Below are positions 9,397 through 48,963 of a stretch of DNA of 64,000 nucleotides, in pieces. Below the pieces are notes generated by a model that was not told where the DNA came from, made no database searches, and saw only the letters and a program-made list of their open reading frames with translations. The number at the start of each line of letters is the position of its first letter. Position 1 is the first letter of the stretch. A program made the position numbers and the translations under genes. The stretch is from Escherichia phage Ptacy1532: the sequence record PQ863255.1; one strand, written 5' to 3'.

Positions 9397-12300
9397 ATGA
9401 TCAGTTACAACAACTCAGCACCTAATGCGGTTAATAACGTAGGTCAATTTGGTGCTACAGAAGGCTCTATCGGTGCTTACAAGTCAGCAGCTGAATATGC
9501 AGCTGATTCTAAATACTGGGCGATGCTTTCTCAAAAGAACTACAACAATATTGGTGAGATTCTTAAAGAAGTAGAGAGACTTTATTCAGAAGGCGAGCTG
9601 CTGAAAGCAGATATTGAACAACTCAAATCTGATTTTGAAAACCAAAACCAAATACTTCTAGGACTCATTCAGCAAACTGGTGAAGCTATTGACGACACTA
9701 ATACCGCTATTGGTGAAGCTAATGCAGCAACAGACCGAGCCAATCAAGCAGTACAAGACGTTCTTACTCAGTTAGATAAGATTTCTAATATGTCTGTTGT
9801 TGCCACCACTCTTCCTCCGGGAGCGCCTGCAACTGGAAGTTTTGATAACAGCACAGGTGTTTTCTCCTTCGGTATCCCTGAGGGTCAACCCGGTAAAGAT
9901 GGTAAAGACGGAACGGACGGTACAATCTCTGATATTGGGGATGTTGCCATAAGCACTCCTGTGGCTGATGATTACGGATTCTTTGTGGATAAAGATGATG
10001 GTGGTTTGTATCGAACTCCGATGAGCGAGATTGCTAAGCTAGTTCCGGCAGTGATTAGTTTCAATGGTCGTACTGGTCCAGTTGTTCCAGCTGCTGGGGA
10101 TTATACGGTAAGTCAAGTTACGGGTGCAGCTGCTTCTGGCGTTAACAACGACATTAACCAAATTCGTGGATTAACCACCGCTCTGTCTGTAGCTCAAGGT
10201 GGCACAGGTGCTAAGAATGCAGATGACGCTAGAACTAACCTATCTGCAATGCTTGACTCTAAAACAGGGCTTTCTAGTACAACCGATCTTAATACTCTGA
10301 ATGGAACAAAAGCAGGTTTCTATTACCAACCTATGTCAGCTTATGCTACCACCGAGTTGAACTATCCTGTACCACTGGCAGGATCTTTACTAGTTGTGAA
10401 AACTGGAGCAAACACTGGGTACTCATGTAAGCAAGTTTATAGTTTGTATGATAACCCAAATGTAACATATTCGCGGGTGCTTAATGCTAGCGCAGGTCCG
10501 ACCTCTCCTTGGTCTGCATGGAAACGTCATATATTTACTGAGAGAGTAGAAGAGGGAGCTTCCGCTACTTTCATGTATTCCACTTATTCTCCGGATGCTC
10601 CTAGACTTCAGGTTGGGACTAATGGTTTGTGGGGGTGTCATAACGGAACTAACTGGGTTTCTTTGGCCTTGGCTCAAGGTGGTACTGGGGCAACAACAGC
10701 AGCTGGTGCTCGAGCTAATTTAAACTTGGATAGATTTGGGGCAATTGGCTCTGAGACTCAAATGTTTTCTCCTAGCGGTAGTAAGAAAATCATTATTACT
10801 AATGACAAATGGGGAGCTTATGACATTGCTGCTGCCAAATACCTCCCTTTAGGTATTGACCAAGGTGGTACAGGTGGTGGAACAGCTGATGCAGCTCGTA
10901 TGTCTCTTGTTGCTGCTAAAAGTGGGGCTAACTCTGATATAACCTCAATGACTAATGTGGTCAATTTCACTCAGTCTCCAACAATCCCTGATGCAGTGTC
11001 TTCTAATGAACCTGTTGCTCTTGGACAACTCTCTACAGAGACTGCCGCTTTGGATACGAAGATTACAGAAGCTAAAGATGCTGCTGCTGCTGCTAACACT
11101 AATGCTAACAGTAGGGTTCTTACTTCTCAGCTTTCAAACACATCTGAAGTAGCTCAAGGAGATGCTTTAGTGGGGGTTATGGCTCCCTTCACTGGTGCTA
11201 CTGCTCGTACTCAGCACGACAAGAACCTTGATGTAATCTCTATAGCTGATTTTGGTGGTGGTACAAGCTTGTTAGATAATGGTACTGCTCTTCAAAGAGC
11301 TGTCACTTATGCAGCAACCGCATCCGGTAATAATCGTGGTATGGTCTATATTCCTCCAGGAGTGTGGAATTTTACTTCCGGTGTATCTGTTCCGGGTAAC
11401 GTTTCTATTAAAGGGGCTGGGGTTGGTTCAACCCAATTAAAAATAAACTCTGCAAACTTGGTTTTGTTTGATATTGGTAATGGAACGAATAACCCGAACA
11501 ACGTCAGCATCTCGGATTTGCATGTTCTTGTAAGTTCTACTTGCACAGCAAACCCTTTATTCCGTTTTAGAAATGGATACAATTGTGGTATTGATAACAT
11601 CCGTGTTGATGGACCTTGGTACGATCTTATCCACTTCCGTGGTGGTTCTGCTCAGTTCATCTATCGTGTCTCGGATAGTATTCTAAATGGGACTACTACT
11701 AGCCGTCACACAATAACCATCGGTGAATCCTCAGCAGATGGTGTTGTTCAAGATGTGTTCTTAACAAACTTAGTTCTTGGTGGGAAAACCACTGGATATG
11801 GTGTTTATGAAAAATACTCTTCTGGTGTATATGCTACTAATGTTGACTCTCTTACTGTCAACGTAGGCTGGGCTTGGGAACCTGCTACTGGGTGCTACTG
11901 CAAAGGTAGTTTCTACACTGCAATCCTAGGAGATACTAACTCTACGGCTGGTCTTAGAATTAGACCTCAGGCTGGTACAACAGTTAGCGACTTAACTTTC
12001 AATGGGTGTTGGGCAAGTTCCGCTGGGTCTAACAGTTCTCATCATGGTTTGATCATTGATAGTTCTGCTGGTACTGTAGCAAACATTAGCTTTAATGGTT
12101 TAACTGCTGTGAATAACAAAGGTCATGGTGTCTACATTAATGGATCTACCAATGGATACGGTTATGAGTTCACAAACCTTAGTGTTTCTAATAACAGTCA
12201 AGCTGGTGCTTCTCTGTGTAGTGGTATGAAAATTGTAGCCGGTTCTTCTCACATAAACATTTCTAATGGTCATGCGGGTGGTACTCTTGGTTTAGGTACA

Positions 12301-33716: not shown

Positions 33717-34132
33717 ATTTTAATTTCCTTATTTAATTTGAAAGATTGTTGCTCTCTTTGAGCGGTTATGTATAGTATACATTACGCTTATACCGATAAG
33801 AGTACTATATAATATAAGTATCTTTGGTAGTAGATATAACACACTAGTAATGTATATATTGTATAGCTGATAAAGTTATTGCAGGCTTGTATATTGGGCA
33901 ATTCACAGAATCCCTTGCAAGTACCGAAGGGCAGGAGCCACCTGCGAGATAAAAATAGAGAATTAAGGAATCCTTGATTTAGGTTGTAGGGACTCCTAGG
34001 GACTTTGATTCTCTATTTAAAAGAATATTAATTACTTATTACCTAAATAATTAACTAACTTACTTAAACCAAATTCAAGAATAATAGATAAAAAGATTAT
34101 TCCTAAGAAAGCTAAAAAGTAAAGGATATAAG
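33717..34132. promoter_or_regulatory. AT-rich intergenic region with promoter-like motifs, palindromes and direct repeats
   Basis: 416 bp non-coding; TAATGTATA on both strands (33848-33856 plus, 33776-33784 minus); palindromes GTATAC, AGTACT, CTTGCAAG; hairpin GCAGG-AGCCA-CCTGC; TAGGGACT direct repeat. Confidence 0.4.
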
Positions 34133-40190: not shown

Positions 40191-40199
40191 TATACATTA
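40191..40199 (-). promoter_or_regulatory. TAATGTATA motif, candidate phage promoter element
   Basis: Exact 9-mer on minus strand upstream of gene 39840..40154. Confidence 0.4.
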
Positions 40200-41509: not shown

Positions 41510-41694
41510 TCAGTAAGAGACCACAGGGAGTCACCTATGTGGGCATTGTCATTCCTGATGAGGTCTTTGATTTTATCAACATCAGTTAAGTGAGTCACAT
41601 TCAAAATATCCTCAACATCCGGGGTATATTTAAATATGGCAATAATACTGTTGTGATCTTCAGCATATCTTTCTAGAACATAAACTACACTCAT
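41494..41694 (-). CDS. hypothetical protein (66 aa)
   Basis: ORF in operon. Confidence 0.4.
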   Translation of the reverse strand: MSVVYVLERYAEDHNSIIAIFKYTPDVEDILNVTHLTDVDKIKDLIRNDNAHIGDSLWSLTEWTLW

Positions 41695-41897
41695 AAGGCA
41701 TCAACCTCTCTCAGATACCACCATTTAAACTCAACACCTTTACGACCACCACCATTCATAACCCAACGCATCATCTCATCAGGTATTCCAAAAGGTTTAA
41801 GTTTCGCATAGTTAGGTTTTTCTAAGAACACAGCTTCAAAATACTCACCATCTTGATCATACTGGTTGATTGCTCTTGTTAGTACCCATACTTTCAT
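41691..41897 (-). CDS. hypothetical protein
   Basis: ORF track 41691..42008; shortened to internal Met MKVWVL to resolve overlap with upstream gene. Confidence 0.35.
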   Translation of the reverse strand: MKVWVLTRAINQYDQDGEYFEAVFLEKPNYAKLKPFGIPDEMMRWVMNGGGRKGVEFKWWYLREVDAL

Positions 41898-42213
41898 TAC
41901 TCTTCTCTTTATGAAGTCTATAAACAGCTGTCGCCATGCAAGCAACAGCTTCATTATGCGGAAGGTGCATCCCTGTAGAACCATCCCAATCTTTGAACTC
42001 ATTGTCAAAGACTCCGGTAGGTTCTGGATACAGAGCTTGCAGCTCCACTAGATCATTAGCAACTTGTTGCCATTTATCATCAGACCAGATAGGGTCATCC
42101 AACCAGTAATACAAATAGGAATGGATGATCAATTGCCTTCTATGCCGATTGATTACTTCAGCGGGACTTATTTCACTTCCATTTGAAGTTCTAAATGTAT
42201 TACCGTCGATCAT
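41857..42213 (-). CDS. small protein resembling the N-terminal Ia domain of NAD-dependent DNA ligase
   Basis: 118 aa; HSYLYYWLDDPIWSD...L.EL.ALYPE parallels the LigA H.YLY..D.P.I.D..YD..L.EL....PE pattern; no adenylation KxDG motif. Confidence 0.35.
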   Translation of the reverse strand: MIDGNTFRTSNGSEISPAEVINRHRRQLIIHSYLYYWLDDPIWSDDKWQQVANDLVELQALYPEPTGVFDNEFKDWDGSTGMHLPHNEAVACMATAVYRLHKEKSNESMGTNKSNQPV

Positions 42214-42416
42214 TATGAAAATTTCCGTTCTGTTAAAAAGTATATAACTTCATTATCTGGAGACCGAACTTTCTCTCCATTTACTAATTTCTTAGCATCT
42301 TCATATGAAGCACAATCCAAAGCAGGGTTATCAGGTGTTGGCTTCCCTAGGAAATATTTCCAAGTCCAACGCTCTCTGTCATCATCTTGACAGTCAAGAG
42401 TCCACAATGTTTTCAT
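42213..42416 (-). CDS. hypothetical protein (67 aa)
   Basis: ORF in operon. Confidence 0.4.
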   Translation of the reverse strand: MKTLWTLDCQDDDRERWTWKYFLGKPTPDNPALDCASYEDAKKLVNGEKVRSPDNEVIYFLTERKFS

Positions 42417-42958: not shown

Positions 42959-43615
42959 TTAAATCTCCAATGTTTTCTTCAGAGCTGCCCACGAGATTGG
43001 GTAGATCTTAGTCATCTCTTCGTCTACAGATTTAGCAAACACTCGAACTTCATATTGAGCGTGAGAGGAGAGTCGCTGACGACACAACTCAAACCATCCA
43101 TACAAAGAACCAGTCCACACCCACTCAGTGATCATCCCCTGAGGAAGAACAAATCGAGCTTGCTCTGGTGCAATAAATTCAATCAACTTGTCATATGCTG
43201 CTAGAGAAGCTTCATATGCATCATTAATCAGCATTAATGCTTCAGCTCGTTCTCCGTCGATGAGTTGAATCCCTGAACCTGCATGGAGGTCCGAAGGTCT
43301 CGCAAAAATCTCTTTAGGGATGAAGACTTCAACTGCTCCATCTTTATACCGCCGGGACATTTCGTTCCACGAGAATCCAACCTGATGCTTCTGTAGTTGA
43401 CGAGCGATTGCAATTGGAGCCTTACAACGAAAGGACACTTGTGGGTGACGGAACGGAGTGCAGTGTTTCTCTCTAGCCAAGAAATTAATCAACCGAGTGT
43501 CACGATCGTTCAAATCACCCTCTCGTACAACACCAAAAGAAACTCTTGCAGCATTAACAACAGTTTTATCACTGCCCATAGCCTCAATCAATGTTGCTTG
43601 CAATTGTTCATTCAT
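42959..43615 (-). CDS. thyX: flavin-dependent thymidylate synthase (ThyX-like)
   Basis: 218 aa; overall ThyX-like pattern with HCTPFRH and SRRY segments; call from motif resemblance only. Confidence 0.6.
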   Translation of the reverse strand: MNEQLQATLIEAMGSDKTVVNAARVSFGVVREGDLNDRDTRLINFLAREKHCTPFRHPQVSFRCKAPIAIARQLQKHQVGFSWNEMSRRYKDGAVEVFIPKEIFARPSDLHAGSGIQLIDGERAEALMLINDAYEASLAAYDKLIEFIAPEQARFVLPQGMITEWVWTGSLYGWFELCRQRLSSHAQYEVRVFAKSVDEEMTKIYPISWAALKKTLEI

Positions 43616-44087
43616 ACTTCAACTTCTCCTTGTTATAAGCAATCTCTGCTTCCTCTGGAGTATGGAAAGTTCCTAGATGCTTAGTCTTTCCATTAACTCC
43701 GATGATAGCTCTGAATTTTGTACCACTAGCCGTCTCTCTGATGTAAACACCCATTGGAAGTTTTCCAGCTTTTCCGGCTCTGTTGTATTGTTTTCTGTTA
43801 TGACAGTTTGTAGATGGGTCAACATCTCTTAGATTTTTAAGAGAGTCATCCAGTTTAATCTGGTTGATATGATCAATCTCAAACTCAGGCATCTTTCCAT
43901 AAGAGAAAAACCAAGCTAATCGACATGCTCTGTAAGATTTCCCTTCATAATAGATATACCTGTAACCTAATGTTGAGATACACCCAGCAATGTTCCCTGA
44001 TATTCTCCGACCTTTAGTATTCTTCCACCTAAAGACCCCAGTATCAGGGTCATATGCTAGGTCATCTTTTATTTTATCAGTTAACAC
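43608..44087 (-). CDS. HNH homing endonuclease with AP2-like domain
   Basis: 159 aa; EIDHINQIKLDDSLKNLR HNH motif; C-terminal GVY..ASGTKFRA AP2-like segment. Confidence 0.7.
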   Translation of the reverse strand: MLTDKIKDDLAYDPDTGVFRWKNTKGRRISGNIAGCISTLGYRYIYYEGKSYRACRLAWFFSYGKMPEFEIDHINQIKLDDSLKNLRDVDPSTNCHNRKQYNRAGKAGKLPMGVYIRETASGTKFRAIIGVNGKTKHLGTFHTPEEAEIAYNKEKLKYE

Positions 44088-45698: not shown

Positions 45699-45707
45699 TA
45701 TACATTT
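45699..45707 (-). promoter_or_regulatory. AAATGTATA motif variant, candidate promoter element
   Basis: One mismatch to TAATGTATA; intergenic, upstream of 45329..45658. Confidence 0.3.
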
Positions 45708-47093: not shown

Positions 47094-48404
47094 TTAGTTA
47101 TTTGTTTCCATGTCAAAAGAGATTCCACGACCCGCTTCATCGGCAAACCGATCATCGAGACTGTGACTGACAGTATCAGCAAGTTCTTCATGAGAGGGAA
47201 TGTCAAGACTACCTACCACATCTTGAGCAGAAGCTTCATCAGTCCAGATAACACGAGAAGGGGCGTTGATATCACCAACAGCAAAACCCTGACCAGAGAA
47301 CTGGTGACGGCTAATAGTCAAACCATTTGATCGACCACGAGAAGGACTAGACATCCATCTCTCCATAGAATCACTTGTAATGCCAAGAGCTTCTTCAAAA
47401 GATGTTCTACGAGAAGAGCTTAGATTTCGTGCTTCATTTGCTCGGCGTCTTGTAGGGGCTACAAACACCCCTTCGATTGCGTTATGACGACTAGGCTCTT
47501 CTTCTCTACCAAGCAAATCACCACCCGTGTTAGTCGTTAAATTTGTCAACCCTTCAGACCAATACGCATAAATTTGACCAGACCCATGAAGACTTGACAT
47601 AATCTGAATCTCTTCATAGGGGATTCCAAAGAATCGACTCATGTCACGGTTAACGCAATACTGAGCACTTGTTGTATCCTCAATAAGAGAAACCTGACCT
47701 AATCCATTAACCAGATGACTAACTGGCTGAGGTGTAGGAAGGTATCGAGTTTGGGCCATATATTGATATGCAACAGATGGAGCTGAGAATCTCAACACTT
47801 GTGAATTAGGCCACTTTTTGTGAACGTATCTGATTTCACGACTAGAAACAACCACAGGGCAAGGAGCGGTCATAGCTAAATACCCATGAGGGGTCATGAA
47901 TAAGTTGTCAAGAGTCATCGCACCACGGCACATCATAGGAAAATTATCCAGAACCTCTTCAATAGAAGTAGGATAATTAAACATGAACTGGATACGAGTT
48001 CCATTCCACTGAAACTCAATAATATCAGTGAACGTTAATTGAGAAGTCCCTGTGTATGGCTCATCTGTAGCTTCAGCAAGAAGTGACGAATATTCAATAT
48101 CTTGTGACTCAAGCCACTCCTTCACGTTACTTTCAATTTCTCTTCCAAGAGCTTGCCAATGATCAGTTGATGTGAAAGTATTTTGGGTTCTTGGTGTTTG
48201 TCCTCTGACAATAAAGATATCAATGTCATGTGGAGCTGTGTTGTTAAGGACAGCATCACGAACAGCCCCACCAGTAATGATGGGACAGATACCGTCTGGA
48301 ATCAAGTTGTTGTTAATCAACTGTTCAATGAAGTGACGACCAACAGTGATATCAGGTTGTTGAGCAACCTTATCTTCAATTCGGTTAATCGGGATAACAA
48401 TCAT
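47094..48404 (-). CDS. nucleotidyltransferase, Pol-beta superfamily (CCA-adding / poly(A) polymerase-like head)
   Basis: ORF track 47094..48461; internal Met start preferred; ITGGAVRDAVL...HDIDIFI matches the GGxxRD...DxD head-domain motif; divergent C-terminal 300 aa. Confidence 0.5.
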   Translation of the reverse strand: MIVIPINRIEDKVAQQPDITVGRHFIEQLINNNLIPDGICPIITGGAVRDAVLNNTAPHDIDIFIVRGQTPRTQNTFTSTDHWQALGREIESNVKEWLESQDIEYSSLLAEATDEPYTGTSQLTFTDIIEFQWNGTRIQFMFNYPTSIEEVLDNFPMMCRGAMTLDNLFMTPHGYLAMTAPCPVVVSSREIRYVHKKWPNSQVLRFSAPSVAYQYMAQTRYLPTPQPVSHLVNGLGQVSLIEDTTSAQYCVNRDMSRFFGIPYEEIQIMSSLHGSGQIYAYWSEGLTNLTTNTGGDLLGREEEPSRHNAIEGVFVAPTRRRANEARNLSSSRRTSFEEALGITSDSMERWMSSPSRGRSNGLTISRHQFSGQGFAVGDINAPSRVIWTDEASAQDVVGSLDIPSHEELADTVSHSLDDRFADEAGRGISFDMETNN

Positions 48405-48405
48405 T

Positions 48406-48963
48406 TTACATTTTCCAATATAATGAAGGTGGGTCGTAAGGGTCAAATCCTGTGAGTTCACACAAGAAAAGATAAACCTTAACAGTTAAGTTAACGTCCT
48501 GTTCACAATAAGTAAACATATCTTCAGTGAAAGCATCCCATGCTTCCTCTTGCTCACCATAATCGCCCTTAAGTTCTCCTAAGAACTCACCCCACTGCTT
48601 CAAACCATGACCTCTTGGGCCACGTCTAGGGTCGCCTTTCGGATACTCAGGACTGTCACCAATACGGTCAGGTTTAAGATATCGACTAAGACATAAAGTG
48701 TCAAAGACGTTAAAACGATATTCAATTAGATTAGGATACATTTTCTTCAGAGCACAAAGGTCGAAGTCAATAATATTATGACCCACGAGCACATCTGCTT
48801 CTGTCAGTTTACGAATCCCGTCTTCGATTTGGTGAGGCCGATAGCCCCACCTTTCACCAGTTTCAACATCGAAGATATAAATACACCATACTTTAGTTAT
48901 GTCATCGTACAGTGCATTACTCTCGATATCGAATGCAAACACTTTCTTCTTTTTCTTTACCAC
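48406..48963 (-). CDS. 3'-5' exonuclease domain protein (T7 gp5 N-terminal-like)
   Basis: 185 aa; FDIESNAL (Exo I), [13 protein letters not shown] (Exo II), YCEQDV (Exo III); encoded separately from the polymerase domain. Confidence 0.7.

Follow-up and report, generated by a model that had tools for sequence, protein, structure and literature searches.

A stand-alone homologue of the LigA NAD+-recognition domain, wrongly named DNA ligase, in Escherichia phage Ptacy1532

We analysed a stretch of 64,000 nucleotides from Escherichia phage Ptacy1532 (sequence record PQ863255.1; this whole stretch is referred to as the window). A small gene on its minus strand, at positions 41857-42213, encodes a free-standing homologue of domain Ia of LigA, the bacterial DNA ligase dependent on nicotinamide adenine dinucleotide (NAD+), without the adenylation domain of that enzyme. 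The 118-residue protein cannot ligate DNA, and the labels "DNA ligase" and "NAD-dependent DNA ligase" are wrong for it. We tentatively favour the reading that it is a non-catalytic accessory that would bind nicotinamide mononucleotide (NMN) or NAD+ and act at the replication fork together with the LigA of the host. The phage is a phiEco32-like podophage that infects E. coli (Kuravirus, Gordonclarkvirinae; taxonomy taken from the record for phage Paul), and most of its genome lies within the window.

Results

Homology and predicted fold

The protein matches the Pfam family PF22745 (Nlig-Ia, "DNA ligase-like, N-terminal NAD+-binding domain") with an E-value of 2.5e-35 and a score of 121.4 bits (cutoff 27). 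Residues 16-103 align to positions 1-91 of the 92 positions of the model. PHROG 6466 is matched with an E-value of 8e-43. A family profile of 61 sequences, compared with the sequences of the PDB, gave 28 matches, nearly all of them to the N-termini of LigA proteins and the best to residues 3-53 of E. coli LigA (E about 1e-3). PF22745 itself recognizes residues 1-103 of E. coli LigA (E = 1.5e-12), using only model positions 2-52. A tblastn search with residues 1-70 of E. coli LigA recovered the solo genes in about 60 related loci, with E-values from 1e-3 to 8e-8.

An AlphaFold2 model of the protein has a mean predicted local distance difference test score (pLDDT) of 89.5 and a predicted template modelling score (pTM) of 0.79. 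It contains helices at residues 17-36, 45-61, 70-73 and 88-110. A Foldseek comparison of this model with the PDB returned LigA for all of the top 25 matches (46-73 aligned columns, root-mean-square deviation 0.6-5 Å). The tightest of these covered 47-48 columns at about 1 Å, that is, the modeled two-helix hairpin superposes on LigA domain Ia (E. coli LigA 1-70; PDB entries 5TT5, 2OWO and 1TAE) over 47-48 residues. Among the structural matches is 8jyd, an NAD+ biosensor engineered from a bacterial DNA ligase.

The original prediction for this gene, made from the DNA letters and their open reading frames alone, had given exactly these coordinates and this length; the reading frame is on the minus strand and starts with ATG. 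The peptide strings it quoted are present in the translation (...IIHSYLYYWLDDPIWSDDKWQQVANDLVELQALYPEPTG...). Its proposed resemblance to the NMN-binding domain Ia of LigA is borne out by the PF22745 match, by the LigA-matching family profile and by the LigA-only top structural matches; profile similarity to LigA Ia, on which it had made its proposal depend, is present, PF22745 hitting both the solo protein and E. coli LigA. It was likewise right in stating that the adenylation motif KxDG is missing: none occurs in the reading frame, and the nearest string, KDWDG, has the form K-x-x-D-G.

A further match, to the Imm41 family (PF15592), involves residues 32-67 and stays below threshold (E = 3.6e-4, 21 bits versus a cutoff of 26.9). 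It was also obtained for the homologue P0010. The match may be a hint that Ia-like hairpins are distantly related to this family of polymorphic-toxin immunity proteins.

Parts of the protein and conserved residues

The coding sequence and the parts of its product are as follows.

41857..42213, minus strand: complete stand-alone Nlig-Ia coding sequence, 118 residues (open reading frame list; ATG 42213-42211, stop 41859-41857).
42031..42168, minus strand: two-helix hairpin (helices 17-36 and 45-61), residues 16-61, homologue of LigA Ia (AlphaFold2, Foldseek, hidden Markov model (HMM) alignment to LigA 3-53).
42109-42111, 42106-42108 and 42079-42081, minus strand: Y35, Y36 and D45, counterparts of LigA NMN-contact residues (HMM alignment).
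42070-42072 and 42067-42069, minus strand: W48 and Q49, counterparts of LigA NMN-contact residues (HMM alignment).
41905..42030, minus strand: family-specific second half, residues 62-103 (Pfam coverage, invariant columns, AlphaFold2).
41857..41904, minus strand: tail outside the domain, residues 104-118 and stop, KEKSNESMGTNKSNQPV (strain comparison, pLDDT).

Five residues of E. coli LigA, Tyr22, His23, Asp32, Tyr35 and Asp36, were reportedly found by Sriskanda and Shuman in 2002 to be essential for the reaction with NAD+. In the alignment they correspond to Tyr35, Tyr36, Asp45, Trp48 and Gln49 of the phage protein, all of which are invariant in the 61 family members. The first four are kept as Tyr, Tyr, Asp and Trp, whereas Asp36 is replaced by Gln. 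Two aromatic residues stack on the nicotinamide in LigA (PMC7470946), and this pair is retained in the solo proteins. A subgroup from phages of Gram-positive hosts and from actinophages keeps the LigA-like Tyr/Phe-Asp at the last two contact positions.

The invariant hairpin positions of the 61-sequence alignment are H31, S32, L34, Y35, Y36, D45, W48, Q49, A52 and L55. The remaining 8 of the 18 invariant positions (F73, W76, G78, T80, G81, H83, L84 and P85, all present here) lie in the second half. This half comprises the short helix 70-73, the invariant loop F73..W76.G78.T80 G81.H83 L84 P85 (FKDWDGSTGMHLP) and the helix 88-110. Unlike the hairpin, these roughly 40 conserved residues are without an equivalent in LigA, as PF22745 runs from model position 1 to 91 in the solo protein and only from 2 to 52 in E. 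coli LigA. We conjecture that in the solo proteins this half replaces the portion of the NAD+ pocket that LigA forms with its nucleotidyltransferase domain.

The tail beyond about residue 102 is different in every kuravirus compared and has a length of 4-16 residues; the pLDDT drops to 53 over the last residues. Relatives from other kuraviruses have 106-109 residues compared with 118 here. The orthologue of phage ECBP2, a kuravirus, is 77% identical and differs only in the last 15 or so residues, the strain-specific tail deriving from another downstream cassette. The length of 118 residues is a by-product of a swapped downstream gene, because the cassette supplies a new 15-residue tail.

The ratio of nonsynonymous to synonymous substitution rates (dN/dS) for codons 1-103 is 0.0-0.2 in a comparison of seven kuraviruses. 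The gene is under purifying selection, and these values rule out that the reading frame is a pseudogene.

Absence of a ligase

The NCBIfam models of LigA score only 13-16 bits against the 118-residue protein, compared with cutoffs of 369-444, and align only at model positions 3-46. PF01653, the nucleotidyltransferase domain, does not match the reading frame. OB, Zn-finger, HhH and BRCT domains are absent from the reading frame according to Pfam, and from the window according to tblastn with LigA.

We scanned the open reading frames of at least 170 residues that lie outside the structural block of the window and found no ligase domain and no NAD-salvage enzyme among them. The proteins recognized were a 5'-3' exonuclease, a sigma factor, DNA polymerase A, a 3'-5' exonuclease, a primase-helicase, a dCTP deaminase, a nucleotidyltransferase, a protein of the Dps/ferritin type, and enzymes of the ATP-grasp, amidoligase and GATase classes; the window further encodes PhoH and ThyX. 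Searches by tblastn with LigA residues 60-400 and 401-671 yielded no match in the window or, within 10 kb of the gene, in 93 loci. A ligase split over two genes, or the remnant of one, is rejected for this phage by these two results, the missing tblastn match to LigA 60-671 and the missing ligase Pfam domain in the scanned frames. About 13 kb of the phage lie outside the window; in relatives nothing but small early genes is found in the corresponding part. The complete genome of phage VTCCBPA_211, which is 94% identical in this region, carries a single annotation "DNA ligase", and this belongs to a 107-residue homologue of the Nlig-Ia protein. We infer that host LigA is the sole ligase available to this phage. 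The names given to family members in GenBank, PHROG and UniRef nevertheless mostly read "DNA ligase" or "NAD-dependent DNA ligase".

Distribution of the family

Stand-alone Nlig-Ia is already known from comparative genomics and has its own Pfam entry, and the novelty of the present protein as such is therefore low. In their section 3.5.1, Iyer, Burroughs, Anantharaman and Aravind (Viruses 2022; PMC9503650) report the solo domain from 81 phages, with ECBP2_0056 as the exemplar. According to the same section these phages, with one exception, have no catalytic ligase module, and the ligand-binding residues are conserved; the roles proposed there are an NAD+ sensor that reports the deployment of host NADases, or an NAD+ shield. 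The window protein belongs to this family, with a full-length Pfam match, a single domain, a ligase-less phage as its source and the same phage genus as ECBP2.

Our profile search extended the family to at least 1,072 clusters (50% identity) at E-values up to 1e-3, 598 of them at E-values up to 1e-10. Among the best 150 members almost all are 75-190 residues long. Isolated phages that carry the gene include Escherichia kuraviruses as well as Arthrobacter, Rhodococcus, Erwinia (jumbo), Clostridium, Streptococcus, Bacillus, Salmonella and Enterococcus phages. The gene is conserved in all 100 matching records of phiEco32-like and related coliphages, including therapy candidates and Bas86-94 of the BASEL collection. 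This cluster count with the solo-specific second half, together with the clamp-type motifs, the helicase fusion and the replication-module context described below, seems to go beyond the 2022 paper as far as its Nlig-Ia passages are concerned; the last three observations do not appear in those passages.

Some members have an unusual architecture. Up to three Nlig-Ia-like repeats occur in tandem in a metagenomic protein of 321 residues (P0234), with three stretches matched by the family profile and two by Pfam. In two others, P0201 (290 residues) and P0222 (315 residues), Nlig-Ia is fused to a common C-terminal domain of about 200 residues. This domain has no Pfam match, and its only PHROG match is to a "minor head protein" (E = 2.5e-24), a label that we do not trust. 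Apart from the triple tandem copy and the helicase fusion described below, the long members have C-terminal regions without a clear family. Three entries of 67 residues in the 90% cluster of the kuravirus protein P0001 (P0122, P0123 and P0128) could be misread as truncated copies. They are a clustering artefact and represent the unrelated upstream neighbour gene (window 42213-42416).

Clamp-type motifs and a helicase fusion in relatives

A minority of the family ends in a motif that resembles a sliding-clamp-binding peptide. An exact C-terminal Q..L[F/W] after a Pro/Ala-rich linker, usually in the form Q[LMA][SA]LF, was found in 27 of 247 family representatives (about 11%). Among neighbouring reading frames on 80 viral contigs such an ending occurs in 2 of 2,070, which corresponds to an odds ratio of 127 (p = 5e-25). 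The bearers include P0018, P0020, P0026, P0030, P0033, P0039, P0043, P0052, P0064, P0070, P0073, P0083, P0085, P0096, P0111, P0119 and others, and motif-bearing loci are L022, L031, L032 and L036, each with the gene at about 10001-10390, and L091, with the gene at 2389-2952. Several of them have an internal PALFDAP in addition. In the IMG/VR loci the motif copies are located on contigs of 61-65% GC, compared with a median GC of 42% in the remaining loci; variants such as QRSLF, QFTLF and QQTLF occur in a few representatives richer in A/T.

Two proteins have the motif at the N-terminus instead, namely Gp16 of Streptococcus phage Dp-1 (MQKSLFGP...; locus L009, 4812-5225) and P0260 (MKQRSLFS...). 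The annotated start of Gp16 lies upstream of the methionine of the motif and is probably wrong.

The consensus of bacterial β-clamp-binding peptides is QL(S/D)LF; in E. coli the clamp makes contact with DNA ligase and promotes early ligation (PMC9690074). Clients of the bacterial β-clamp such as Pol II, Pol IV, Hda and the δ subunit carry a terminal QL(S/D)LF motif similar to that of the minority of Nlig-Ia members described here. Unlike these clients, the window protein has no terminal motif, and clamp binding by its relatives is putative. One motif-bearing copy belongs to a lambdoid prophage that encodes a DnaB helicase; no polymerase was seen in the 18 kb read.

A natural fusion is found in gp102 of Rhodococcus phage ReqiPoco6 (541 residues; L095, 3917-5542). 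Nlig-Ia occupies residues 16-101 of this protein (E = 1e-32) and is fused to a superfamily 2 DNA helicase (phrog_62, E = 9e-66). This fusion, too, is annotated as "DNA ligase".

Gene neighbourhoods

In the window the gene is located among genes of replication and nucleotide metabolism, with PhoH, ThyX, thioredoxin, dCTP deaminase, Pol A and primase-helicase as neighbours. Similar surroundings were observed in other, unrelated isolated phages. In Streptococcus phage Dp-1 the Nlig-Ia gene is flanked by RecA and by the DnaX/HolA clamp loader that the phage itself encodes, and DnaN is found upstream; in Clostridium phage phiCTP1 it is flanked by DnaN-like and Pol III genes. In Arthrobacter phage Cassia it comes directly after the genes for DNA polymerase I and primase/helicase, and in Rhodococcus phage RGL3 after those for polymerase I and thymidylate synthase. 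In Erwinia phage Phobos it is placed among thymidylate kinase and synthase genes.

Metagenomic neighbours were clustered without preselection across 42 dereplicated IMG/VR groups. Recurrent ones included the gp59 helicase loader, the gp32 single-stranded DNA-binding protein and DUF932 (9 groups each), SNase (7), PhoH and ThyX (6 each) and the gp44 clamp loader (5). For the high-GC contigs that bear the clamp motif the precomputed Pfam context is nearly empty, and a simple caller of reading frames is unreliable there.

In Rhodococcus phage Weasels2 (L014, 985-4246, gp245-gp242) the Nlig-Ia gene overlaps the 3' end of the gene for nicotinamide phosphoribosyltransferase (NAMPT), and genes for phosphoribosyl pyrophosphate (PRPP) synthetase and an HNH endonuclease lie immediately upstream. 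By tblastn, NAMPT and PRPP synthetase were found in no other locus among more than 90 and not in the kuravirus window. A general tie of solo Nlig-Ia to NAD salvage is rejected, the adjacency being confined to Weasels2 among the loci searched.

Layout of the locus and further features of the window

The Nlig-Ia gene is part of a long, dense array of minus-strand genes. Over 3.2 kb around the gene, the sequence shares 97.5% identity with Escherichia phage Ptacy1479, and 91-94% with the other kuraviruses that match best. The features next to the gene and the promoter motifs are:

42213..42416, minus strand: upstream small gene, 67 residues (open reading frame list, sequence).
41691..41897, minus strand: downstream small gene, 68 residues from the ATG at 41897, phrog_6933, of unknown function (PHROG match).
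45699-45706, 40191-40198 and 33776-33783, minus strand: gp36-type promoter motif AATGTATA (exact match).
8594, 18749, 23980 and 33849, plus strand: gp36-type promoter motif AATGTATA (exact match).

The upstream gene has no Pfam or PHROG match. Its TAA stop (42215-42213) overlaps the ATG of the Nlig-Ia gene in the sequence TAATG, and because of this overlap translational coupling of the two genes is suggested, in a tightly packed co-directional array. On the other side, the last 41 nucleotides of the Nlig-Ia coding sequence are overlapped by the downstream gene. The phrog_6933 match (E = 1.3e-15) begins at residue 38 of the long reading frame and covers residues 1-54 of the 68-residue form. This gene is a swapped cassette. 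Nucleotide homology with most kuraviruses ends near 41893, just inside its start, and the cassette is complete only in Ptacy1479, the sole record that covers the whole query of 851 nucleotides.

AATGTATA is the core of the promoter element for the gp36 sigma factor of phiEco32, and its seven exact copies in the window compare with 2.8 expected. A terminator-like hairpin at 44765-44737 (minus strand) is situated between the motif at 45706 and the Nlig-Ia gene.

Three other regions of the minus strand deserve mention. A gene for a 159-residue HNH_3 endonuclease (43608-44087; E = 6.6e-7) lies between thioredoxin and ThyX. It is probably a mobile homing endonuclease insertion, because phage Paul has a gene for a 67-residue hypothetical protein at this position. 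A nucleotidyltransferase of 455 residues (47094-48461; phrog_12715, E about 1e-237, with a weak match to the PolyA_pol head domain) is encoded between the genes for dCTP deaminase and for the 3'-5' exonuclease and polymerase. Finally, a cluster at 51893-60344 comprises ATP-grasp, glutamine amidotransferase, amidoligase and "phiEco32-like COOH-NH2 ligase" genes, one of which matches a Pfam family named after phiEco32-like phages. This cluster looks like a peptide or amide-bond modification system.

Discussion

Proposed function

Based on the homology, the largely conserved contact positions and the genomic context we propose the following role for the protein, which we put forward tentatively and as something short of an even bet. 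The protein would bind the nicotinamide-nucleotide half of NAD+, or free NMN, and the second half of the domain (F.DWDGSTGMHLP and the helix, about 40 residues) may complete the ligand pocket. It would then assist host LigA where phage DNA is synthesized, the likely aim being sustained sealing of nicks. In one variant, NAD+ would be captured or handed to LigA when the cofactor is scarce. Such scarcity can be severe, Sir2-HerA lowering NAD+ 7- to 17-fold. NMN reverses the adenylation of LigA, and in a second variant the phage protein would remove this product, which drives LigA de-adenylation. The original prediction had offered, as speculation, that a free Ia-like domain might bind NAD or NMN or interfere with host ligase or NAD-dependent defence; these ideas agree with the proposal in section 3.5.1 of PMC9503650 and are compatible with the retained NMN-contact positions, the lack of a phage ligase and the replication context. 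A more general form of the proposal, in which solo Nlig-Ia proteins are replisome accessories that dock on the clamp, the helicase or LigA and tune the host's NAD+-dependent ligase in trans, appears rather doubtful to us.

Several observations weigh against the proposed role. The window protein ends in ...GTNKSNQPV, with neither a terminal Q-x-x-L-F nor a fusion, so that its link to the replisome is borrowed from relatives. The two commonest neighbours in the metagenomic set are a T4 gp33-like late coactivator and a cell-wall hydrolase (13 of 42 groups each), many other neighbours are unannotated small early genes, and gene neighbourhood in phages is weak evidence anyway. Position 49 is mostly Gln (Trp-Gln in 200 of 246 scored sequences) where LigA has Asp36, reportedly essential, and the ligand or the affinity may therefore differ. 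The part assigned to the second half of the domain is a conjecture. Host LigA moreover has its own Ia domain, and the benefit of a second copy in trans is hard to see. Our literature search found no experimental study and no binding or activity data for any member of the family.

Alternative explanations

The explanation of Iyer et al. (2022), an NAD+ sensor or shield that reports NADase deployment or sequesters NAD+ and is unconnected to ligation, is on balance unlikely in our view, although it has a real chance of being correct. The exemplar treated in their section on the domain is the ECBP2 protein, the orthologue of the one described here, and the largely conserved ligand-contact residues fit such a role. 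Many copies reside in arrays of small early or accessory genes, typical sites of counter-defence, and depletion of NAD+ is a common anti-phage strategy. That a biosensor (8jyd) has been built on a bacterial DNA ligase and that the Weasels2 copy adjoins NAMPT and PRPP synthetase point in the same direction, yet this adjacency was seen in one of more than 90 loci. A sensor requires an output, whereas among the best 150 members nearly every protein consists of a single domain, with 75-190 residues, and a stoichiometric shield is implausible at millimolar NAD+ (an estimated concentration). The terminal clamp-type motifs, the helicase fusion and the positions in replication modules would also be left unexplained. 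These same motifs can be read in a hostile sense: a free Ia domain carrying NMN or NAD+ might dock on the nucleotidyltransferase domain of LigA and block adenylation or drive de-adenylation, while clamp-tethered versions might compete for the β-clamp, so that DNA repair and replication of the host would be reduced. Phages do target the sliding clamp, the protein is a domain-level mimic of a host enzyme, and the original prediction had already raised interference with host ligase. This phage and most carriers (according also to the Nlig-Ia section of PMC9503650) have no ligase of their own, however, and a blockade of LigA would therefore stop the joining of the phage's own Okazaki fragments. 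Temperate carriers that apparently rely on the host replisome would suffer as well, and we consider this explanation quite improbable.

The Ia-like fold could also have been reused, for another small ligand or as a protein-protein adaptor, with the DWDGSTGMHLP loop as the real functional site. The replacements of Asp36 by Gln and of Tyr35 by Trp in most members would agree with this, as would the half of the domain that has no LigA counterpart and holds 8 of the 18 invariant positions, and the sub-threshold match to Imm41. On the other hand, four of the five positions that contact NMN in LigA are invariant and hold either the same residue or a conservative substitute, one subgroup is LigA-like at all five, and the sole metabolic neighbour seen, NAMPT, makes NMN. 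Reuse of the fold thus appears improbable. The database names suggest that the protein is what is left of a decayed phage LigA gene, or the smaller part of a ligase split over two genes, but this is hardly credible. The nucleotidyltransferase, OB, Zn-finger, HhH and BRCT modules are absent from the reading frame and the scanned window frames, from the genome of the close relative and from the surrounding 10 kb in more than 90 loci. Nor do the low dN/dS, the consistent length of about 100 residues over at least 1,072 clusters and a conserved second half of its own fit a relic.

Comparison with NAD+-rebuilding pathways and significance

The proposed accessory invites an analogy with NARP1, NARP2 and NARP3, by which phages rebuild NAD+ as a counter-defence. 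The likeness would consist in a phage-encoded function centred on NAD+ or NMN, and NAMPT, the NARP2-type enzyme, adjoins the solo Ia gene in one phage, Weasels2. Unlike these pathways, solo Nlig-Ia has no enzyme domain and, to judge from its sequence, would at most bind the nucleotide. The domain is not involved in the NARP3 paper, in which the word "ligase" has 0 occurrences and text matches to "liga" belong to other words.

A phage that lacks a ligase relies on host LigA, the only essential replication enzyme to consume NAD+, and many anti-phage systems destroy NAD+. A phage copy of the ligase's NAD+-recognition module is a plausible meeting point of replication and NAD+-centred immunity. 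The annotation "DNA ligase" is misleading, as it implies that these phages seal DNA unaided. The clamp motifs and the helicase fusion sharpen the vague idea of a sensor into a specific, testable hypothesis. If the more general proposal, of accessories that tune the host ligase in trans, is true, ligase-less phages could seal their Okazaki fragments under scarcity of NAD+, for example that caused by NADase defences, or under build-up of NMN. Solo Nlig-Ia would then be the first example known of a cofactor domain that serves a DNA ligase in trans, and it would add a new class to the known counter-defences.

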